DNA of 10,432 bases, taken from the UHGV virus genome UHGV-0214677; one strand, 5' to 3'. The notes below the pieces were generated by a model. It had not been told where the DNA came from and did not search any database. It worked only from the letters and a program-made list of their open reading frames with translations. This document shows, one piece after another, positions 1 through 10,432 of the stretch (position 1 is its first letter; each line of letters opens with the position of its first letter). This DNA is from a virus. The translations under genes and the position numbers were made by a program.

Positions 1-201
1 ATAATGTCGCTACCGCAGGAAACGAAAGAGGAAAAGGAATTTCGCCATTGTATATGGCTTGCAGAGAAAGAAGAACGCGAGCGAATTTACCAGACATCAA
101 TCCGACCATTCCGCAAAGCCACATATACCCACTTCCCTGAATATATCGACCCGCGCCTGCGTAATTACCGCTCACGCTATGGCGCTATCAGTAATGACTG
201 A
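1..201 (+). CDS. Hypothetical prophage protein, probably 3' part of a gene that begins upstream of the window
   Basis: Frame 1 is open from nt 1 with an ATG at 4 and stop TGA at 199-201. The translation ([16 protein letters not shown]...) is protein-like, and the next gene follows 10 nt later with its own SD. No family recognised. Confidence 0.4.
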
Positions 202-211
202 GGAATTTACC

Positions 212-376
212 ATGAGAGGACTTGCATACAATCCCGGCATTCTTCCGGCAGAAATGATTATTCGCCAACGCGTAAAGCCAATGCCATCGAGAGAGGAATT
301 GCTTAAGAGAAATAGTTTCGGTTCTGTTAATGACAACAAATATCTGAATGCGATGTGGCGGAGTGGGAAAAAATGA
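212..376 (+). CDS. Small hypothetical prophage protein (54 aa)
   Basis: ATG at 212 preceded by GAGGA (200-204). Stop TGA at 374-376 overlaps the ATG of the next gene (ATGA). The longer ORF-track call 59..376 would overlap the previous gene out of frame and has no SD. Confidence 0.4.
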
Positions 377-972
377 AACAAATGTCACTAATTGAGATGG
401 ATGGTTTTCTGAAAGGTAAATGCATCCCAAGTGATTTAAAGGTTAACGAAACAAACGCTGAGTATCTGGTGCGTAAATTTGCTGAAGCGGAGGCCAAGAT
501 TTCGGCTCTGTCCGAAGACCACCAGAAAGCGATTGAGTCAATTAAGCAGGCTGATGCGGCTGTTAAGTTGGCACACGAGAAGTTTTCGGCGCTGGCGGCG
601 GAGAATGCGGGGCTGAAGGGTGCGTTTGATAAGCCTCAAGCATATCTATCCTGGCACGCTATTCCACCAAGCTGGGAAGACCCGCTCCCATGCGGTGAAT
701 ATCTTGATGTTCATGACGAGGCAGGACACAAAAACTCCGATGGAACTGATTGCTGGCCGGTATATGCCAAGCCAGAAATCGAGACCACAGCCACCTACGC
801 ATTCCTGGCTGAAGTACGGGCGCAGGGGGTAGAGATGTACGCAGATAACCTCGACAACGGAGCAGACGACGCAGAACGAGGTGGTTTTGATTATGCCGTT
901 AAGTTTCTACGCAGTGAAGCGTCTGGTGTACGTTTGTTCGCCGACCAGCTTCGCAAAGGAGGCAACCAGTGA
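373..972 (+). CDS. Hypothetical prophage protein
   Basis: ATG at 373 preceded by GGAG (359-362), in frame with the ORF-track call 355..972. Stop at 970-972 overlaps the GTG start of the next gene. No family recognised. Confidence 0.55.
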
Positions 973-1829
973 GCAAGATTGATTATCAGGCACTGCGTGC
1001 TAAGGCAGAAAAAGCAACGTGTGGCGAGTGGTCTCTCGAGTATGGAGAGGGCCGATTTGATGGTGATGATGCACTAATTCATCGCGAGGCTGCTGGATAT
1101 ATTCCCATTTGCAGAATTGAAGGAGCGCATCCTGAAAGCGGTTTCGATGAAGATTTCCAAATAGAACAGCAGGCCAATGCTGAATTCATCGCCGCAGCCA
1201 ATCCGGCTACCGTCTTGGCGCTGCTGGATGAACTGGAAAGAAACCAGCAATACATCAAACGCCGCGACCAGGAGAACGAGGATATTGCGCTTACGGTTGG
1301 GAGGCTGCGCGTTGAGCTGGAAGGCAAAGACAGCAAAATAGCCAATCTTACCGCCGAACGCGATGCTCTTCGTGAAGGTGAGATGGGCGACGCTAGGCAT
1401 AGCAACACACGGGCCGCAGCTGATATCTACTTCCAACTGGTCGAGGAGTGCGAAATTCCTGCTGGCGGTTCTCTGGTCGAGTACGTTGACGATATGCGCG
1501 AGAAGCTGGAAGCCGCAGAGAAACGTCTGGCAGAACTACAATCTAAATCCATGCGACCTGTGGCGTGGATGAGAAGCGACGATATTACTACATTTGGACC
1601 AATATTCACCAAGAACGAAAACTATGCTGTTGAGCAGTGGGGAGATAATGCGGTAGCGCTTTATGCATCCCCAGTTAATTTCAAGTTGGCATGCTTCACT
1701 GACGAGAGAAATCTTAAGTACATCAATGAACGAGGAAGGGAGACATCTCTCATCTGGAGCGAAAGAAATTCAGAAAATGGTGATGTTCAACTTTTCCGCG
1801 CCGCAGGCATTCGCATCAAAGGAGAGTGA
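969..1829 (+). CDS. Probable Ead/Ea22-like prophage protein
   Basis: 286-aa ORF with GTG start at 969 preceded by AGGAGG (957-962). N-terminal 'DYQALRAKAEKATCGEW' and a central coiled-coil-like acidic region resemble the Ead/Ea22-like family of lambdoid prophages (recalled, not searched). Confidence 0.65.
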   Translation: MSKIDYQALRAKAEKATCGEWSLEYGEGRFDGDDALIHREAAGYIPICRIEGAHPESGFDEDFQIEQQANAEFIAAANPATVLALLDELERNQQYIKRRDQENEDIALTVGRLRVELEGKDSKIANLTAERDALREGEMGDARHSNTRAAADIYFQLVEECEIPAGGSLVEYVDDMREKLEAAEKRLAELQSKSMRPVAWMRSDDITTFGPIFTKNENYAVEQWGDNAVALYASPVNFKLACFTDERNLKYINERGRETSLIWSERNSENGDVQLFRAAGIRIKGE

Positions 1830-1830
1830 T

Positions 1831-2118
1831 ATGGCAACTTTGCAGGAATTAATCGACCTGACGCCGGAACAGGAAAAAGCGTGGAATCGCCTTGTGAAGG
1901 CTGTAAAGGATTTCAGGGCATCCGGAGGAAAGTTTTATAGCGTCCTGGACACGCTGAGCGCATACAACGGTGAGCACGTTGCCAGCATTGATAACGATAA
2001 GGGCTACCACACTGCAAGCGTCTATATGCCTAGCATTGATGCGCCAGGGCTAACCAGTTGGGCTGATGATTGGCACGGCATCACGCTGAAAGATGGCGTT
2101 GAAGTGGATGAGGACTAA
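1831..2118 (+). CDS. Hypothetical prophage protein (96 aa)
   Basis: ATG at 1831 two nt after the previous stop, preceded by GGAGAG (1821-1826), in frame with ORF-track 1663..2118. The upstream part of that ORF overlaps the previous gene and is unlikely to be translated. Confidence 0.5.
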   Translation: MATLQELIDLTPEQEKAWNRLVKAVKDFRASGGKFYSVLDTLSAYNGEHVASIDNDKGYHTASVYMPSIDAPGLTSWADDWHGITLKDGVEVDED

Positions 2119-2121
2119 CCC

Positions 2122-2814
2122 ATGACCACTATTACCAAAGAGCGACTACTGACAATCAAGCAGTGGCGCGAAACATACGGACCTGGTAGCAACGTTGTAC
2201 TGCCAGCAGAAGAAGCGGAAGAACTGGCACGAATTGCACTGGCATCGCTGGAAGCAGAACCGGTGGCGTGGATGCGTGATGACGCAGATGGTCGTGAGTA
2301 TAACGCTCGCAATGAATTTTCTGATGGAGGGAAAGGAATTCCGCTATATCGTGTGCCGCCAGCGCCGGAAGTGCCGGAAGAAATATATTGGCAGGATGCG
2401 CCAGTTGAAGGCAGCATCAAAGCGGCTGCATACGCTACAGACTGGAACGCCTGCCGCGCCGCCATGCTTCATGGTGCCAAACCTGTAAGCCAGACTTACA
2501 AGTTAAACGAGCTGTCGGGCAACTCTCCGGTAACTCCGGATGGTTGGATAAGCTGTAGTGAGCAGATGCCTGTAATCGGCGAGCTAAATTGGAGAACTAG
2601 TTTTCCTTTACTGGTTACGTGTGAGATCGGCGTTATACCTGCTTATTACGGCTTTGTGAGCGTTAATGGTGATAGGCATTATGGCTTTATGGAGAGTCTT
2701 AAATACGGAGACGATAACGGCAACCATCCTCAAACTAATGAATATGGTCTGATTAGCAATGTCACACACTGGATGCCTCTACCAGAACCGCCTCAGGAGG
2801 TTAACCGTGGCTAA
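2122..2814 (+). CDS. DUF551-family prophage protein
   Basis: 230-aa ORF with ATG at 2122. The C-terminal '...THWMPLPEPP' matches the signature I recall for DUF551 proteins of enterobacterial prophages. Stop overlaps the next gene's start. Confidence 0.65.
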   Translation: MTTITKERLLTIKQWRETYGPGSNVVLPAEEAEELARIALASLEAEPVAWMRDDADGREYNARNEFSDGGKGIPLYRVPPAPEVPEEIYWQDAPVEGSIKAAAYATDWNACRAAMLHGAKPVSQTYKLNELSGNSPVTPDGWISCSEQMPVIGELNWRTSFPLLVTCEIGVIPAYYGFVSVNGDRHYGFMESLKYGDDNGNHPQTNEYGLISNVTHWMPLPEPPQEVNRG

Positions 2815-3088
2815 TCTGCAACTTGCCGTTAAAGGTGAATACTTCGATGCCATGATTCGCGGGGAGAAAACGGAAGAGTATCGCTTGTGTAATGACTACT
2901 GGAATAAGCGAATTATGTTCCGGGAGTATGACCGCCTGATTATCACGAAGGGATATCCGAAGCGCGACGACTTCAGTCGCAGAATTGATGTCCCGTATGA
3001 CGGATATGAAATCAAGACAATCACACATCCCCACTTCGGCGATAAACCGGTAAAGGTATACGCGATAAAGGTGAATATCAATTGCTAA
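2807..3088 (+). CDS. Hypothetical prophage protein, possibly ASCH/PUA-like fold
   Basis: GTG at 2807 preceded by a perfect AGGAGG (2795-2800) with 6-nt spacing, in frame with ORF-track 2759..3088. Overlaps the previous stop by 8 nt. The fold assignment is a weak guess. Confidence 0.5.
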   Translation: MANLQLAVKGEYFDAMIRGEKTEEYRLCNDYWNKRIMFREYDRLIITKGYPKRDDFSRRIDVPYDGYEIKTITHPHFGDKPVKVYAIKVNINC

Positions 3089-3089
3089 A

Positions 3090-3199
3090 TTAGTAGCATA
3101 GCATAAAGATGCTTGCATTAATGAAGTGTGTATAATAACGCCTCATCAATAGTAAACTACTGAAATAGCAAAAAATGCATATTAAAGAGGATTCGAAAA
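3090..3199 (+). promoter_or_regulatory. AT-rich intergenic region with candidate sigma70 -10 element (TATAAT at 3121-3126)
   Basis: Consensus TATAAT hexamer in an AT-rich spacer upstream of the 3200 ORF. The nearest -35-like TTGCAT (3104-3109) is only 11 nt away, so the promoter architecture is unresolved. Confidence 0.3.
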
Positions 3200-3391
3200 T
3201 TGAAAATGTTCATGCAAATAGACAGACGCATAGATATTAATGGCAATTCATACTTAGTTAGATGCGAAGAGAGGCCTAACGGTGAGTGGCGTGTATATGA
3301 TATTGACCGTAAGATCAATATCAGCACCATGAACAAAGACACTGCCTTTGATGAATGGAAAGCTGAAGCTAAAAAACAACATAATTCGTAG
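3200..3391 (+). CDS. Small hypothetical protein (63 aa)
   Basis: ORF with TTG at 3200 (ATG alternatives at 3206 and 3212) preceded by AAAGAGGA (3184-3191). Lies in the AT-rich region. No family recognised. Confidence 0.4.
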   Translation: MKMFMQIDRRIDINGNSYLVRCEERPNGEWRVYDIDRKINISTMNKDTAFDEWKAEAKKQHNS

Positions 3392-3471
3392 AATTACAAA
3401 AACCCTAACCAATTGATGGATTTCTTTTATCTGAACTCGCTACGGCGAGTTTTGTTTTATGGAGATGATAA

Positions 3472-3639
3472 ATGCACTTCCGAGTCACAGGTGAATGGAA
3501 TGGAGAGCCATTCAACAGGGTTATCGAAGCAGAGGACATCAACGACTGCTATAACCACTGGATGATATGGGCGCAGATAGCACATGCAGACGTAACCAAT
3601 ATTCGAATTGAAGAACTGAAAGAACACCAAACCGCCTGA
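3472..3639 (+). CDS. Small hypothetical protein (55 aa), below the ORF-track length cutoff
   Basis: ATG at 3472 preceded by GGAG (3461-3464). Translation MHFRVTGEWNGEPFNRVIEAEDINDCYNHWMIWAQIAHADVTNIRIEELKEHQTA. Stop TGA at 3637-3639 sits in the loop of a canonical terminator hairpin. Confidence 0.5.
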   Translation: MHFRVTGEWNGEPFNRVIEAEDINDCYNHWMIWAQIAHADVTNIRIEELKEHQTA

Positions 3640-3655
3640 TGGCGGTTTTTTATTG
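3630..3655 (+). terminator. Rho-independent terminator
   Basis: Stem ACCGCC (3631-3636) / GGCGGT (3641-3646) with loop TGAT, followed by TTTTTTATT. Confidence 0.7.
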
Positions 3656-3696
3656 CCTGATTTGCAGGTTCGATTCCCTATTCGGAGATAGCACTC

Positions 3697-3897
3697 ATGC
3701 AACACGAACTACAGCCTGATTCACTGGTTGATTTGAAATTCATCATGGCCGATACTGGCTTTGGTAAAACCTTCATCTACGACCGTATTAAGTCCGGCGA
3801 CTTGCCAAAAGCCAAAGTTATCCACGGGCGAGCAAGATGGTTATATCGTGACCATTGTGAATTCAAAAATAAGCTCTTAAGCCGCGCCAATGGGTAA
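3697..3897 (+). CDS. AlpA/Xis-family DNA-binding protein (probable excisionase or integrase regulator)
   Basis: 66-aa ORF with ATG at 3697 preceded by GGAG (3684-3687). The pattern 'LKFIMADTGFGKTFIYDRIKSGDLPKAKVIHGRARWLYRDHCEF' matches the AlpA-family helix-turn-helix signature. Sits immediately upstream of the integrase on the same strand. Confidence 0.8.
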   Translation: MQHELQPDSLVDLKFIMADTGFGKTFIYDRIKSGDLPKAKVIHGRARWLYRDHCEFKNKLLSRANG

Positions 3898-4109
3898 AAT
3901 AGCGGGTAAAATATTTCTCACATCTAAAAAACACCATTCCAATCAATCCCCTGCCGCCTCAAGTAGATGTCTGCAGGGGACACCATTTACACCTCTCCTG
4001 AAATCTACCATATCCCATAAAAAGCCTTTATAATCAGTATATACCCTTACTTATGTTACTCAAATAGTCGCCGTGATTCTCCTCAGGGGTACGTAAATCA
4101 AGTCACATT

Positions 4110-4159
4110 TGGGGGCCTATTTAGGGGCACATATTGGTCAATCTATTGCGAGGCCCCCA
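4110..4159 (+). promoter_or_regulatory. Perfect 9-bp inverted repeat spanning the integrase ribosome-binding site
   Basis: TGGGGGCCT (4110-4118) and AGGCCCCCA (4151-4159) are exact reverse complements 32 nt apart. The right arm contains the GAGG Shine-Dalgarno 7 nt before the int ATG. Confidence 0.3.
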
Positions 4160-4160
4160 G

Positions 4161-5351
4161 ATGCCACTGACAGCTCGACAAGTTGAAACAGCCAAACCCA
4201 AAGATAAAATTTATAAAATTGCCGATGGTGGTGGGCTCTACCTGCAGGTCAATCCTAACGGCTCAAAGTACTGGCGAATGAAGTACCACTATGCAGGGAA
4301 GGAAAAGAAACTATCATTTGGCACCTATCCAACTATTACATTGGCTGAAGCTCGCAAACGTCGGGATGAAGCCAAGAAAATACATGCCGATGGTAAAGAC
4401 CCCGGTGAAGTCAAGAAAGCTGAAAATCTTGAGAAAAACCTTTCTGAAGGAAGAACTTTTGCCACAATCGCCACCGAGTGGTACAACGCAAAAGTTTCAG
4501 GCTGGTCGGCCAGCTACGCTGATTATGTCGACAGAGCATTCAAAAATAATGTGTTTCCCTACATTGGAAACAGACCCATCAGTGATATCGAACCTCTTGA
4601 ACTTCTCGCAGTTCTTCAGCGTATTGAAAGCCGCGGAGCCTGCGAGCTAGCTAATAAAGTTCGCCAACGATGTGGTGAAGTGTTTCGGTATGCCATTGTT
4701 ACAGGTAGGGCTCGATACAATCCAGCCTCTGATCTGGTTATAGCAATGAAAAGCCATAAACGAACACATTACCCATTCCTGCTTCCTCCTGAACTACCAG
4801 AGTTTTTGTACAAACTCGAAAACTACACCGGCAGTATTGTAACCCGTGAAGCTACAAAATTGTTGATGCTCACAGGGCTGAGGACCGTAGAATTACGTAT
4901 GGGGGAATGGTGTGAGATCGATTTTTCCCAAAAAATATGGGAAGTGCCTCCGACCCGGATGAAAATGAGGAAGGAACATATTGTTCCCCTCTCAAATCAG
5001 GCAATTCGGTCTCTCCAAATCCTTAAAGAACTGACGGGAAGATACAGATACATCTTTGCCGGAAGAAATGATGTTAACAGGCCTATCAGCGATGCAAGCG
5101 TCAATATGGTTTTGAAGAAGATTGGCTATGACAAAAAAGCTACCGGGCATGGTTTTCGTCATACAATGAGTACTATTCTACATGAGAAAGGATTCAATAG
5201 TGCATGGATTGAAATGCAACTTGCACATACGGACAAAAACAGCATTCGTGGTACATACAACCATGCTCGTTACCTTGAAGGAAGACGAGAAATGATGCAA
5301 TGGTACGCTGACTACCTTGATGCTATTCGAAAAGATTCCCCAGCTATATAA
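4161..5351 (+). CDS. int: P4-family (DUF4102-type) tyrosine integrase
   Basis: Typical N-terminus 'MPLTARQVETAKPK...GGGLYLQVNPNGSKYWRMKYHYAGKEKKLSFGTYP...LAEARKRRDEAKK'. C-terminal catalytic signature present: R in 'GLRTVELR', 'HGFRHT', and Y in 'IRGTYNHARY'. ATG at 4161 with SD is preferred over the in-frame TTG at 4134 used by the ORF track. Confidence 0.9.
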   Translation: MPLTARQVETAKPKDKIYKIADGGGLYLQVNPNGSKYWRMKYHYAGKEKKLSFGTYPTITLAEARKRRDEAKKIHADGKDPGEVKKAENLEKNLSEGRTFATIATEWYNAKVSGWSASYADYVDRAFKNNVFPYIGNRPISDIEPLELLAVLQRIESRGACELANKVRQRCGEVFRYAIVTGRARYNPASDLVIAMKSHKRTHYPFLLPPELPEFLYKLENYTGSIVTREATKLLMLTGLRTVELRMGEWCEIDFSQKIWEVPPTRMKMRKEHIVPLSNQAIRSLQILKELTGRYRYIFAGRNDVNRPISDASVNMVLKKIGYDKKATGHGFRHTMSTILHEKGFNSAWIEMQLAHTDKNSIRGTYNHARYLEGRREMMQWYADYLDAIRKDSPAI

Positions 5352-5489: not shown

Positions 5490-5913
5490 GATACAACCAT
5501 CAGTCAGCCTGCTGGCACGACGTTGCGACAGACCCGTTGCCTCACACATGACTTCCACGGCTTCCCACTTCTGTTCTGTCGTCAGAATTTCGGTCCAGAG
5601 CTACCTGAAGTACCTCCTTATCCAGCATGGTTTTGGCGAGCAGCGTCTTGAGGGGTCGTTCTCCTCTTCAGGTGTCTTAAGCCGCTTTACCTCAGGGACT
5701 TCTATTCCACCAAACTTCGGCGCCCGGTGTAGAAAGTAGCGTCTGAAATAGCATTCTTGCGGCAGAGTTCCCGGGCAGAAACGCCGGCTACGGCCTCGCG
5801 GAGGATACTGATAATCTGTTCGTCGGAAAACACTTCTTCATGGGGATACCCTAACGTTGCTGATGAAGACATTACTTACATCGTGGTATATTAATAAATG
5901 TGGGAGCAGGTCA
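5490..5913 (-). mobile_element. Degraded IS3-family insertion sequence remnant (IS407-group-like orfA with frameshifts, truncated at its distal end)
   Basis: The - strand reads MSSSATLGYPHEEVFSDEQIISILREAVAGVSARELCRKNAISDATFYT... from ATG at 5870-5872, then breaks frame. Other frames continue with '..EVPEVKRLKT..', '..LLAKTMLDKEVLQVAL..' and '..VEVMCEATGLSQRRASRL', typical of IS3-family OrfA and the OrfB N-terminus. A terminal-repeat-like TGACCTGCTCCCA (reverse complement of 5901-5913) lies 41 nt outside the ATG. The inner boundary near 5490 is approximate. Confidence 0.6.
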
Positions 5914-6058: not shown

Positions 6059-7108
6059 TTGAGCAGCGAAAAAAAAAAGAAAGTTGGGTTAATGCTTGGG
6101 AATGGATTCACTATTGACCTCCTTAGCAAAATGGACAAACTTGATATAATTGACCCATCCGATCTATTTAAATATGGCGATATGGTTAAGTGGCCCGCCA
6201 CTGGGGAACCCGGTTTTCTTTCTGCTCGATATTGCCCAAATCTATGGCGATTGGGTGCAAGACCCGGGCTAAATAGAACCGCATCATATCAAATAATAGA
6301 AGAATTAATTACAGTAATAAATTTATATGCAACTCTACCTCCAGAAACAATAAAGAAGAAAAATCAGGCAAGTCATACTCCATTGTCAAACATTTACATT
6401 TATGCTTATCAAGAATTAGTTTCATATTTAAGGGAGCTTTTCATTGATTATAACGAAAAAGTTTCCTCTGAAGATCTACGTAAGTTAGAAAGTGGCTGGC
6501 GAGACTATTTGATGAAACTGGACAAAAACGAAAACATAGAACGAGTTGATATTATAACTTATAACTATGACATTTATCTTGAGCGCCTTCTTGATTTACT
6601 TAATATCAGATTTGACATCCCAAACATATCTGACGGGAATGCAAAGTTTAAAATATACAAACCACATGGCTCTATTAGCTTCTTGTATGAAGGATATATG
6701 TCAAAAGATAACTACAATATCCAAAAAGAGTTATCTTTAAATAATGGCGACATATCAAAATTCGAATGCCGGCATGAAAACTTAAGCCTTTACATGCCAT
6801 TAATTCCAATAATACCGCCAGCAGGAGAAGCTCATCGTTATGCCCAAAACTGGGCTAATTCAATTAAAGAGTCTATTGAAGCGACGATGGAGTCGTACAA
6901 CCCAAACGATGATTTCTTCATTTGTGGTATTTCATATTGGCATGTTGATCGTGCCGAAATTGATGCAATAATACGCAAAATAAACAGTGACGTTAATGTT
7001 AGAATGATTAATCCAGGAAATGTTGATGGTTTAAGTGCTATACTTGGAATGGTATTTAATAGTTATGTTCATCATTCATCATCTGAAGTTTTAAAGGAGC
7101 TTGCCTAA
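6059..7108 (+). CDS. SIR2-like (DHS-like NAD-binding, SIR2_2-type) protein; candidate NAD+-consuming effector
   Basis: 349-aa ORF. Three motifs occur in the order expected for SIR2-family defence proteins: a Gly-rich N-terminal loop 'VGLMLGNGFTIDL', 'DIITYNYDIYLERL' (compare the TTNYD motif; predicted Asn ~169) and 'KIYKPHGSISF' (compare the KLHGS motif; predicted His ~203). Start is TTG at 6059 (SD AAGGA at 6044-6048) or the in-frame ATG at 6092. Stop TAA at 7106-7108 overlaps the next start. Confidence 0.6.
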   Translation: MSSEKKKKVGLMLGNGFTIDLLSKMDKLDIIDPSDLFKYGDMVKWPATGEPGFLSARYCPNLWRLGARPGLNRTASYQIIEELITVINLYATLPPETIKKKNQASHTPLSNIYIYAYQELVSYLRELFIDYNEKVSSEDLRKLESGWRDYLMKLDKNENIERVDIITYNYDIYLERLLDLLNIRFDIPNISDGNAKFKIYKPHGSISFLYEGYMSKDNYNIQKELSLNNGDISKFECRHENLSLYMPLIPIIPPAGEAHRYAQNWANSIKESIEATMESYNPNDDFFICGISYWHVDRAEIDAIIRKINSDVNVRMINPGNVDGLSAILGMVFNSYVHHSSSEVLKELA

Positions 7109-8136
7109 TGGAAATTTTAAAGCGGGATTCAAACAGTATTAATATTGCTTCCTTTTGGGAGGGCTTTTCATTAGGCAAATTTAATTTTGATCCTCCTTAT
7201 CAAAGAGATAGTGTTTGGGATGAAGAAAAACAATCATTCTTTATAGATAGTATACTACGTAACTATCCAATTCCCCCTATATTTCTCCATCAAAAAATTG
7301 ATGATGACACCGGAAGAATCACGTTTGAAGTTGTTGACGGAAAACAGAGGCTCACTGCCATTGTTAATTTTATCAATGGCCAAATAACATCAGCAAGTGA
7401 GGAAGAAGATGATGAATTGACTGGTGTGTTTTTTTCCGATTTATCAACTTCTAAATATGCAGAAGTTAAAAAATTATTCTGGCGATATCAGATGCCTATA
7501 GAGTACATTGATACTGAAGACGAAAGAATAATTGATAGTATTTTCGACAGGCTTAACAGAAATGGTGAACGACTTAACGGACAAGAGTTAAGGAATGCCA
7601 AATATCATGATACTGATTTTTATAAAAAAATAGTAGAATATTCACAACGTGAATATTGGCAAAAATTGCTAGAGCACGTTGATAAGAAGAGAATGGAAGA
7701 CAAAGAGTTTGTATCTGAATTGATATTCACGATCCTTGAGGATGAAGTATTTGGTGCAACTCAAGACATAATTGATAGTCTTTACGAGAAGTATTGCACC
7801 AAGAATGGTGATGAAACAAATGAGGCATTTTCTATTTTTGAAAAAACAACTGACTATTTAGTTGATATGAATATTGATTTCAAAAGTCATAAAGCAAGCG
7901 GTGTTAGTCACTTATACGGAATCTTCAGTTATGCACTTTATTGCAGTAACAATAATGTTCCTGTAGAAGAAGCGTCAAATAGACTTTCCACCTTCCTGGA
8001 TAGCTTGTGGGAAAAAGATACACAACATAATGCGGAATTAAGAAGAGAATATAGAAAAACTATGAGTTCTAGCACAAAAAGCAAAACCCAACGCTCACGT
8101 AGAATTGAAGTGCTTTTAAATCTACTTCACGATTAA
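7108..8136 (+). CDS. DUF262 / ParB-like nucleotide-binding domain protein without a C-terminal HNH (DUF1524) domain
   Basis: 342-aa ORF with ATG at 7108 overlapping the upstream stop (TAATG), preceded by AAGGAG (7093-7098). N-terminal 'FDPPYQRDSVWDEEKQSFFIDSIL' and 'EVVDGKQRLTAI' match the two signature motifs of DUF262 (the GmrS / SspE N-terminal ParB-like domain). No His-Me/HNH-like motif is visible in the C-terminal ~140 aa. Confidence 0.75.
   Translation: MEILKRDSNSINIASFWEGFSLGKFNFDPPYQRDSVWDEEKQSFFIDSILRNYPIPPIFLHQKIDDDTGRITFEVVDGKQRLTAIVNFINGQITSASEEEDDELTGVFFSDLSTSKYAEVKKLFWRYQMPIEYIDTEDERIIDSIFDRLNRNGERLNGQELRNAKYHDTDFYKKIVEYSQREYWQKLLEHVDKKRMEDKEFVSELIFTILEDEVFGATQDIIDSLYEKYCTKNGDETNEAFSIFEKTTDYLVDMNIDFKSHKASGVSHLYGIFSYALYCSNNNVPVEEASNRLSTFLDSLWEKDTQHNAELRREYRKTMSSSTKSKTQRSRRIEVLLNLLHD

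Positions 8137-9861: not shown

Positions 9862-10432
<571 letters not shown>

Follow-up and report, generated by a model that had tools for sequence, protein, structure and literature searches.

Inverted repeats between torI and a P4-family integrase gene at an argW junction of two mobile elements

The stretch of DNA analysed here, referred to as the window, comprises 10,432 nucleotides of the UHGV virus genome UHGV-0214677. Two genes on the + strand, the strand of all features unless stated otherwise, frame the region of interest. The downstream gene, int (4161-5351), encodes a 396-aa tyrosine integrase of the P4 family that belongs to an argW island and is 48% identical to IntS. Pfam analysis of Int revealed PF13356 (Arm-DNA-bind_3; residues 3-88, E = 3.8e-28), Phage_int_M and Phage_integrase; the first of these is the arm-binding domain expected of an integrase acting at a P4-family att site. 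The upstream gene, a 66-aa open reading frame at 3697-3897 with its stop codon at 3895-3897, had been called alpA-like in a preliminary description. It is torI (hkaC in HK620), based on the RefSeq annotation under the match and on the annotation of HK620, and belongs to a different element from that of int. Its product, by this annotation, is the recombination directionality factor (RDF) of KplE1/HK620-type phages.

The 264-bp torI-int interval contains two inverted repeats. IR1 consists of TCCCCTGC at 3947-3954 and GCAGGGGA at 3973-3980, with 8 of 8 positions matching and 18 nt between the arms. IR2 consists of TGGGGGCCT at 4110-4118 and AGGCCCCCA at 4151-4159, with 9 of 9 positions matching and 32 nt between the arms; an imperfect extension to 18 nt (4101-4118/4151-4168) retains 83% complementarity. 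Both repeats, as well as a TATAAT hexamer at 4029-4034, were located where the preliminary description had placed them: IR1 starts 50 nt past the torI stop codon and IR2 brackets the int ribosome-binding site (GAGG at 4150-4153; int ATG at 4161). The interval is a composite recombination site involving two mobile elements and the argW tRNA gene.

The left part of this site is a prophage attR of the HK620/KplE1 type (P arm and core; 3874-3989), delimited using a published primer site, the end of the phage match and alignments. Specifically, the attR-IHF2 primer (PMC3509656) maps to 3874-3893, and the attR reported to recombine in vitro begins at the equivalent of 3874 (PMC3509656). Two direct copies of GGGTAAAATA (3892-3913), the first overlapping the torI stop codon, are read as putative IntS arm-type sites of the P arm: GGGTAAA blocks are invariant among diverged attPs, and the same word occurs at the P' positions of K-12. 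In the published description, a TAAA motif marks the IntS P' sites, and P'1 lies across the -10 element TAaAAa (PMC2951348). The published 16-nt core, CTGCAGGGGACACCAT (PMC2951348), corresponds to 3971-3986. Thus, the 16-nt core, torI, both copies of GGGTAAAATA and the attR-IHF2 primer site are all present, and the attR is 98.5% identical to the attPs of HK620 and Sf6. From the attP alignment, we infer a core GATGTC-TGCAGGG-GACACC at 3966-3984, made up of a C half-site, a 7-bp overlap and a C' half-site. The pattern G(A/G)TGT(C/A)-TGCAGGG-GACAC is conserved across attPs, and in phage EhrS_49 its half-sites are perfectly inverted copies of each other, GGTGTC/GACACC. A 16-nt perfect copy of argW nucleotides 46-61, corresponding to the 5' half of the T-stem and the T-loop, lies just upstream of torI at 3662-3677. 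It exactly matches argW of K-12 and is also present in HK620 (position 5170 of the HK620 sequence), the record of which annotates a cII box/pI promoter overlapping the copy. A small open reading frame over attP (hkaB in HK620) was considered as the cause of P-arm conservation. It was rejected: the frame is annotated inconsistently among relatives and would span the recombination junction, and the conservation occurs in discrete blocks.

Matches to HK620/KplE1-type phages stop at position 3989. In alignments, the window corresponds to the left half of the HK620 attP followed by the right half of the argW-attL of Escherichia coli ATCC 8739. In that strain, the tRNA gene argW lies directly before the same leader and int, and FDAARGOS_536 has the same layout, with the argW gene directly 5' of the leader and int. 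At the seam of prophage attR and island attL lies an argW-derived block (3971-3989; 19 nt identical to the 3' end of argW tRNA-Arg(CCU) plus 4 nt), followed by the P' arm of the island attL (3990-4160), which is also the int leader. Based on these alignments, an HK620/KplE1-like prophage contributes its right end to the window (positions 1-3989), and an older argW island contributes its attL and integrase (from 3990 onward). The prophage would have inserted between argW and the older island, a tandem integration. Its attR (torI, P arm and core; 3874-3989) would therefore now abut the island attL (core, P' arm and int; 3971-4160). ARAGORN detected no tRNA gene in the window, and the tRNA link is made only via comparison with K-12. 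The argW island is large and IS-ridden. A search of ATCC 8739 for the island attR and P-arm words found no second core copy within 50 kb. A close phage relative of this integrase was sought for a clean attP, and all phage matches were <60% identical. The 'IntC' of EDL933 (tested by Panis 2010) was ruled out as this integrase, as O157:H7 genomes lack the latter. At Rfam gathering thresholds, nothing was matched in the torI-int interval, the sole match being an IS3-family frameshift element at 5498-5614.

To evaluate the repeats against chance, 3898-4163 was shuffled 2000 times with preservation of dinucleotides, allowing loops of 3-45 nt. Of the shuffles, 12% contained one or more perfect 8-bp inverted repeats and 3% one or more 9-bp repeats. 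Thus, IR1 alone is not significant and IR2 is modestly so. At the level of sequence comparison, it is the comparative data rather than the shuffle counts that show both IR1 and IR2 to be real features.

IR1 had been assigned to the int leader. It sits instead in the prophage attR, and its left arm is missing from ATCC 8739, which has the island alone. The right arm (3973-3980) lies on the 7-bp overlap, within the argW-derived crossover core, and would represent the overlap plus core sequence copied from the tRNA acceptor/T-stem. The left arm is part of a conserved P-arm block 18 bp upstream: CAAnCCCCTGC (3944-3954), which is invariant in the attPs of relatives. This block overlaps a candidate IHF-like motif (A-tract ... 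AATCAA-TCCC-CTG), so called by consensus resemblance only. We consider the chances about even that the pairing itself arose by chance or as a side effect of the argW palindrome, CCTGCAGG, the two halves mattering separately and having no function as a pair. The shuffle frequency and the loss of the left arm where the island stands alone are consistent with this explanation, and so is the fact that the tRNA sequence determines the right arm. Moreover, the 18-bp separation of the arms exceeds that of a C/C' pair, for which 3966-3984 provides a better C-O-C' core. Finally, no T-run follows the hairpin, so it is not a terminator. Against coincidence, CAAnCCCCTGC and the C-O-C' core are invariant, and their distance constant, in attPs of Erwinia and Klebsiella phages that are only 74-77% identical overall. 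The left-arm block is therefore constrained, and this constraint may possibly involve complementarity to the overlap sequence.

The island side has the layout of P4-family P' arms. The left arm of IR2 (4110-4118) is a putative P'1 arm-type site, based on the family layout and homology to P4. A direct, partly degenerate copy, TAGGGGCAC (4122-4130), is a putative P'2 located 12 nt from P'1; the spacing is the same in P4 and other relatives, the window copy being the degenerate one (AGGGGCAC). The right arm of IR2 (4151-4159) is a putative P'3 on the - strand, inverted relative to the other two. It overlaps the Shine-Dalgarno (SD) sequence GAGG and ends 1 nt short of the ATG; its homologue in P4 is the arm repeat lying over the int start. 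[quoted passage not shown] The two arms of IR2 are thus best read as putative P'1 and P'3, arm-type sites for the island integrase.

This layout is widespread. Most of 80 homologous int loci have two upstream copies of a word at about -50 and -38, a spacing of 12 bp, inverted relative to a third copy 0-4 nt from the ATG. The words are lineage-specific (GGGGGCCT, GGGGGCAT, GGGGGTAT, GTGTATAG, CGGTAT and TGCGGGCAT), and all copies change together. In K-12 intS, the same alignment columns contain GGGTAAAA, GGATAAAA and two copies of TTTTACCC. These fit what has been published on the IntS P' arm-type sites: a TAAA motif, P'1 over the -10 element and transcription starting 28-29 nt before the ATG (PMC2951348). 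The window thus has two direct copies about 12 bp apart and an inverted one at the int start, at positions homologous to those of P4 and KplE1, with a degenerate P'2. The P4 record annotates 'attP arm sequence repeats' whose word, TGGGGGCAT/C, is nearly that of the window; they comprise two in the P arm, the core, two direct copies and one inverted over the int start. The word was also observed on both att arms of the KFu014 thrW island: three times at attL and twice at attR (TGGGGGCAC and AGGGGGCAT). The attR copies, in the P arm, are 12 nt apart and 12 kb from int; they precede the 15-nt core repeat of attR by about 75-90 nt.

The repeats of IR2 are therefore most likely, on these comparisons, protein-binding DNA sites, the protein being the integrase itself rather than an AlpA/Xis-like one. 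What was observed directly is the junction, the layout shared across the family, homology to the annotated P4 sites and to the mapped site positions in KplE1 and, in relatives, the occurrence of the word on both att arms; from layout and word homology, we infer that this Int binds these words and autoregulates. Int bound at P'1, P'2, P'3 and the core would build an intasome for integration and excision. Because the arm sites overlap the int promoter/leader, autorepression by the island Int would be a further consequence. Such autoregulation has been published for IntS, with its sites mapped and its repression measured (PMC2951348), and was reported for P4 Int (Piazzolla et al. 2006 as cited in PMC2951348); the ratios of repression published amount to about 6-15 (IntS) and 10-28 (IntC). 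In the subgroup that includes the window, no recognisable sigma-70 promoter lies over or between the sites, so that promoter occlusion is a less evident route to autorepression here than in K-12 and P4. Overall, we regard it as highly probable that the interval is a composite site of tandem integration in which IR1 is made up of prophage attR elements and IR2 of arm-type sites of the island Int.

The promoter region was compared in 31 sequences: the window, P4 and 29 relatives. The TATAAT hexamer lies in a conserved element, CCTTTATAATCAGT (4024-4037), which could be a bend/IHF-type site or a distal -10 element. Hexamers matching TATAAT at 5-6 of 6 positions occur at -110 to -134 in 21 of the 31 sequences, and in the window subgroup a TATAAT at about -132 is perfectly conserved. 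Upstream of the int ATG, a promoter scan identified neither a sigma-70 promoter for this gene nor a -35 element for the hexamer at 4029-4034. Further downstream, a conserved AAATCAAG box (4095-4102) aligns with the -35 element (TTGAAA) of the P4-type int promoter; it is also the last unit of an array of TCnAC repeats, spaced by about 10 bp, that are candidate RDF sites. The P4-equivalent int promoter is good in only 6 of 31 relatives and poor in the window, which scores 5 of 12. No terminator-like site was predicted on the + strand between 3649 and 4400, which includes the torI-int gap.

The preliminary description had also proposed that IR2 acts in RNA by sequestering the int SD sequence, which calls for a stable fold and for arms that are conserved and covary in related leaders. 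Both were found. As RNA, IR2 forms a predicted 13-bp helix, including one G-U pair, over the SD sequence and AUG at -31.3 kcal/mol, with z values of -3.4 to -3.6, and none of 200 shuffles reached this stability. Related int leaders show both conservation and covariation of the repeat arms. A fold-back mechanism could operate besides or instead of the DNA role: transcripts from upstream, whether argW read-through, torI transcripts of the tandem prophage or starts at the TATAAT of 4029-4034, would pair P'1 with P'3 and bury the SD sequence and AUG. Translation of int would then be limited to transcripts starting inside the loop or to an opened helix. Such control needs a transcript that starts upstream of 4110. 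We judge this mechanism unlikely, if not negligibly so. The hairpin is unusually strong and could have a function of its own. Opening the ribosome-binding site (4148-4166) was calculated to cost 17-19 kcal/mol for 5' ends at 3697, 3986, 4041 and 4100 and only 7.5-9.7 kcal/mol for 5' ends at 4119-4136. The lack of a predicted terminator-like site between 3649 and 4400 is likewise favourable, and the combination of a weak P4-equivalent promoter with the perfectly conserved TATAAT near -132 makes a long leader possible. Allowing G-U pairs, the helix is slightly longer in leaders without a proximal promoter (9.9 versus 8.8 bp). For P4 Int, post-transcriptional control and RNA binding by Vis were proposed (Piazzolla 2006, as summarised in PMC2951348).

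However, the covariation singles out no one helix. The score was 0.218 for P'1:P'3 and 0.192 for P'2:P'3, each exceeded by 0 of 500 shuffles; because P'2, which cannot pair simultaneously, co-varies with P'3 equally well, the signal is not specific to the SD-sequestering hairpin. Neither is the word confined to the int transcript: the P arms of the thrW island and P4 contain it as well, a long way from any int mRNA. Three relatives (L078, L079 and L083) have direct copies only and no significant structure (z = -0.6 and -0.4), so the fold is not shared by all. The intS transcript of K-12 starts between the arms, and a P4-type promoter would put the start there too; the window scores only 5 of 12 for such a promoter and has the conserved TATAAT upstream. 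From its mapped start, the K-12 mRNA is unstructured (-0.8 kcal/mol), and the long form shows no significant fold (z = -0.7). Watson-Crick inverted complementarity is equally long with or without a promoter between the arms (8.5 versus 8.2 bp), and no paper found by the literature search describes such a role. It is unlikely that in the P4 integrase family P'3, placed between the SD sequence and ATG, acts with P'1 to silence translation of int from upstream transcripts. If it did, int would be made only from the element's own promoter or from transcripts opened by a factor. One DNA word would then serve as both an Int-binding site and a transcriptional-insulation device, the insulation being against the tRNA gene always in front of such elements or against a tandem neighbour as in the window.

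The repeats had alternatively been suggested to be binding sites for the AlpA/Xis-like regulator. That they are protein-binding DNA sites agrees with the arm-type reading; the proposed protein does not. Operators for TorI or for an RDF of the island, controlling int, would have a precedent in KplE1, where TorI represses intS by binding attL near the -35 element (PMC2951348). Furthermore, the leader contains repeats of the TCTCC/TCTACC/ATCAAG type, spaced by about 10 bp, at the positions of the two TorI site blocks. Nevertheless, neither inverted repeat includes any of these candidate RDF repeats. The sites mapped for TorI consist of GTTCG/GATCG/GTCCG direct repeats (PMC2951348), which are unrelated to GGGGGCC and occur neither in IR1 or IR2 nor anywhere in 3990-4160. 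In addition, torI is part of the neighbouring prophage rather than the island, ATCC 8739 has no torI before this int, and a GGGGGC-type word is annotated in the P4 record as an attP arm sequence repeat. We therefore consider it very improbable that the inverted repeats are such operators.

Under the preferred reading, arm-type sites of the integrase at a tandem-integration site, what appears to be a regulatory leader between an excisionase and an integrase gene would be the seam of two independent mobile elements. Its value is mainly corrective, the repeats being parts of recombination sites. It also suggests an annotation rule for P4-family elements: the arm-site word may be read as two direct copies followed by an inverted copy abutting the ATG, an aid in delimiting att sites and in predicting cross-reactivity among integrases. 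The two argW-specific integrases represented here have a common core and unrelated arm words.

P4 (NC_001609) is a close parallel, with an integrase of the same family having arm-binding and catalytic domains (Piazzolla et al. 2006 as cited in PMC2951348). The words are nearly the same (TGGGGGCAT/C versus TGGGGGCCT). In both systems, P' contains two direct copies 12 bp apart and, about 22-32 bp further, one inverted over the int start, with a tRNA-derived core upstream and a box (GAAATC in P4, AAATCAAG in the window) before P'1. P4 targets the tRNA gene leuX, whereas the window element is at argW. The window further differs in its degenerate P'2, in scoring 5 of 12 where P4 has a good TTGAAA-18-CATAAT promoter over P'1/P'2, and in being part of a large, IS-ridden island rather than a satellite phage.

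The KplE1 (CPS-53)/HK620/Sf6 module is arranged as argW, attL, intS ... torI, attR (Panis et al., PMC2951348; PMC3509656). The left half of the window corresponds to its torI-attR, with 96-98% identity, the 16-nt core, the GGGTAAAATA arm sites and the attR primer site. The island attL resembles that of KplE1 in architecture: a core, repeats, arm sites that overlap the promoter region and, directly against the ATG, inverted site(s). However, the island integrase is only 48% identical to IntS, the arm word is GGGGGCC rather than GGGTAAAA, and the island lacks TorI site motifs. In KplE1, the mapped intS start falls between the direct and inverted sites. The hairpin of IR2 also recalls the 'fold-back inhibition' of read-through transcripts that Davis, Simons and Kleckner reportedly described for IS10/Tn10 in 1985. 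There, an upstream arm is said to lie outside the element's own short transcript, such that the ribosome-binding site is sequestered only in externally initiated RNA. The difference of about 8-10 kcal/mol in opening cost would fit this logic purely by analogy. Unlike in IS10/Tn10, the repeat in the window is explained by predicted protein-binding sites and belongs to an integrase/att module, not an insertion sequence.

The interval between the 66-aa ORF (3697-3897) and the integrase gene int (4161-5351) is a tandem-integration seam, a member of a well-known class. The annotation under the matches identified the ORF, previously described as alpA-like, as torI, the recombination directionality factor (RDF) gene of KplE1/HK620-type phages. 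The match to HK620, HK633, HF4s and similar phages ran from window position 1 and ended at 3989. Positions 3971-3989 (CTGCAGGGGACACCATTTA) were identical to the 3' end of the K-12 argW tRNA-Arg(CCU) gene plus 4 nt and include the published 16-nt KplE1 core, CTGCAGGGGACACCAT (PMC2951348). In a four-way alignment, the window corresponded to the left half of the HK620 attP (P arm and core) joined to the post-argW sequence of E. coli ATCC 8739; in that strain and in FDAARGOS_536, the argW gene itself lies directly upstream of the identical leader and int. The int product was only 48% identical to IntS, the KplE1 integrase of K-12. The window is therefore a tandem array at argW: an HK620-like prophage contributes its right end (torI-attR), which is joined through the common core to attL of an older argW island. 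torI and int are parts of different elements, and the single int leader proposed to hold both inverted repeats does not exist: the torI/attR half is prophage and the int half is island. The same tandem torI-int arrangement was found in E. coli O26:H11 11368 (L001, 9562-10752) and related strains; the O26:H11 int allele, 96.3% identical to that of the window, contains an internal stop and is annotated as a pseudogene.

Two further features were observed in the prophage half. Just upstream of torI, 3662-3677 (TTGCAGGTTCGATTCC) matches argW nt 46-61 perfectly, and in the tRNA this piece directly adjoins that of the att core at 3971-3985 (argW nt 61-75); in the phage the two pieces lie 293 bp apart, with torI and the P arm between them. 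The fragment also occurs in HK620, where a cII box and the pI promoter are annotated over it, and may have survived from a tRNA identity block that was longer in an ancestor. A 47-codon ORF at 3890-4033, the counterpart of HK620 hkaB, spans the torI stop, P arm, core and junction. It is probably not a gene: its annotation is inconsistent among relatives and its conservation is block-wise.

Inspection of the sequence bore out all the coordinates in the preliminary description: the perfect 8-bp repeat IR1 (TCCCCTGC, 3947-3954/GCAGGGGA, 3973-3980), the perfect 9-bp repeat IR2 (TGGGGGCCT, 4110-4118/AGGCCCCCA, 4151-4159), TATAAT at 4029-4034, the GAGG Shine-Dalgarno (SD) at 4150-4153 and the int ATG at 4161. 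The repeats thus stand as observed; their interpretation held only in part. Among 2000 dinucleotide-preserving shuffles of the interval, perfect inverted repeats with loops of 3-45 nt reached 8 bp in 12% and 9 bp in 3%. By these statistics, IR1 alone is not significant and IR2 is modestly so.

IR1 is the conserved P-arm block plus crossover core of an HK620/KplE1-type attR. Primer attR-IHF2, which bounds the 135-bp attR of the published in vitro excision assay (PMC3509656), maps to 3874-3893; IR1 lies inside that attR, its right arm on the core derived from the tRNA. Erwinia and Klebsiella phage attPs are only 74-77% identical over this stretch, yet four blocks were invariant in them: two GGGTAAA arm sites (3892-3913), CAAnCCCCTGC (3944-3954), which includes the left arm, and the core block G(A/G)TGT(C/A)-TGCAGGG-GACAC (3966-3984). 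Both IR1 arms were invariant across the compared attPs. The core block suggests a core of the canonical C-O-C' type, with TGCAGGG as its 7-bp overlap and half-sites GGTGTC-like/GACACC; in phage EhrS_49, half-sites GGTGTC/GACACC are perfectly inverted. On this reading, crossover would occur where the argW T-stem meets the acceptor, not in the T-loop, and the right arm is essentially the overlap region. The left arm, at a distance of 18 bp, lies in a constrained block of the P arm, overlaps a putative IHF-like motif by consensus (A-tract ... AATCAA-TCCC-CTG), and is absent where the argW island stands alone, as in the ATCC 8739 alignment. A terminator role for the IR1 hairpin was rejected, as no T-run follows it.

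IR2 belongs to a recurrent layout. We read the leaders of 80 loci encoding integrase relatives from GTDB species representatives. Most contained two direct copies of a short word with a spacing of approximately 12 bp (about -50 and -38), followed after a further 20-30 bp by one or two inverted copies that stop 0-4 nt short of the ATG. In the window these are P'1 (4110-4118, the IR2 left arm), its direct, partly degenerate copy P'2 (4122-4130) and the inverted P'3 (4151-4159, the right arm). The word varied by lineage (GGGGGCCT in the window group, GGGGGCAT, GGGGGCT(T/C), GGGGGTAT, GTGTATAG, CGGTAT or TGCGGGCAT), and within one leader all copies changed together.

The preliminary description had suggested RNA-level control of int, and folding of the leader indeed predicted a stable hairpin, a 13-bp helix over the SD and AUG (-31.3 kcal/mol, z = -3.4); its strength reflects the G+C-rich arm word. 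Fold-back of P'1 and P'3 RNA would silence int in upstream-initiated or read-through transcripts. This is physically plausible, since the predicted cost of opening the RBS was 17-19 kcal/mol when the 5' end lay anywhere upstream of 4110 and 7.5-9.7 kcal/mol when it lay at 4119-4136, and no terminator was predicted from argW or torI to int. As described in PMC2951348, post-transcriptional control of Int, as well as RNA binding by Vis, has been proposed for satellite phage P4 (Piazzolla 2006); our literature search found no paper on an RNA role of an RBS-overlapping arm site. Such silencing nonetheless appears unlikely, and arm-type integrase sites are the primary explanation of IR2 on five grounds. 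The compact thrW island of strain KFu014 has three copies of the word at attL and two more, TGGGGGCAC and AGGGGGCAT, 12 nt apart, which lie 12 kb from int and approximately 75-90 nt upstream of attR's 15-nt core repeat; the 7-mer GGGGGCA had only four other occurrences in 50 kb. In an alignment of 31 GGGGG-type leaders the arms did co-vary, but not in a helix-specific way: P'1:P'3 showed 95% pairing and covariation of 0.218, the mutually exclusive P'2:P'3 showed 86.7% and 0.192, and both covariation values were exceeded by 0 of 500 shuffles. The covariation is that of a single word present three times and does not single out one helix. In two Symbiopectobacterium sp. loci (L078, L079) and Pectobacterium odoriferum (L083), all three copies (CGGGTAC/CGGGTAT, -45 to -1 before int) are direct, including that abutting the ATG, and these leaders had no significant structure (z = -0.6 and -0.4), providing a natural no-hairpin control within the family. 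The real K-12 intS mRNA was unstructured (-0.8 kcal/mol; long form, z = -0.7). Finally, P'1-P'3 Watson-Crick complementarity was the same with a good promoter between the arms (8.5 bp, n = 6) as without (8.2 bp, n = 18).

The alternative that the repeats are operators of the AlpA/Xis-like regulator found no support: TorI is the neighbouring prophage's protein, and none of its mapped motifs, GTTCG/GATCG/GTCCG (PMC2951348), occurs in the island leader. Two blocks of TCTCC/TCTACC/ATCAAC/ATCAAG/AAATCAAG-type repeats with approximately 10-bp spacing (3990-4023 and 4060-4102), outside both inverted repeats, could serve the island family's own RDF as binding sites. They recur at the same positions in L007, L009-L015, L040 and other loci, and are placed like TorI blocks I1;2 and I3;4;5 of KplE1 attL. 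Their final unit, AAATCAAG (4095-4102), lines up with the -35 of the P4 int promoter (TTGAAA-18-CATAAT).

A good sigma-70 promoter at the P4-equivalent position was found in only 6 of 31 relatives; the window scored 5/12. Its subgroup instead has a perfectly conserved TATAAT at about -132, within a conserved CCtTTATAATCA element (4024-4037) that most P4-family int leaders share, irrespective of tRNA target, at about -110 to -134. The corresponding sequence is TAAAAT in P4 (L090, ~4030-4045, minus strand) and GAATAT in K-12 (L002, ~625-640). Where this TATAAT is perfect, a good promoter over the arm sites tends to be missing, and the reverse also holds. The element may act as a bend/IHF-type site or as a distal -10/promoter.

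The argW island carries IS fragments and cargo. An IS1222-type frameshift element (5498-5614, minus strand; Rfam RF00383, 98.5 bits) directly follows int, and an rve-domain ORF (9904-10422, minus strand) lies near the window end. Both are IS3-family remnants; the island is decaying. A two-gene cassette (6059-8136), possibly anti-phage cargo, encodes first a 349-aa protein whose AbiH-like match is weak and falls short of the Pfam cut-off and then, in an overlapping gene, a 342-aa GmrSD_N/DUF262 protein. A 97%-identical integrase and leader on a 3-kb contig (L008, DYYI01000083.1) labelled Aliicoccus persicus MAG (Firmicutes) most likely reflects contamination or mis-binning.

Comparison with known systems places IR2 most likely as the P'1/P'3 arm-type sites of an uncharacterised P4-family argW-island integrase, whose sequence includes a Pfam arm-DNA-binding domain. 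In K-12 intS, GGGTAAAA, GGATAAAA and two copies of TTTTACCC occupy the same alignment columns as the window words, fitting the published description of the IntS P' sites: a TAAA motif, with P'1 overlapping the -10 (TAaAAa) (PMC2951348). IntS represses its own promoter, and intS transcription starts 28-29 nt before the ATG (PMC2951348), hence between the direct and inverted copies. The features labelled 'attP arm sequence repeats' in the P4 GenBank record have the same arrangement as in the window family: GTGGGGGCAC-AAAA-GGGGGCAT (P arm), the core, TTGGGGGCAT-AA-TTGGGGGCAT, 22 nt, and GTGCCCCCAA-ATG, with an arm word nearly that of the window.
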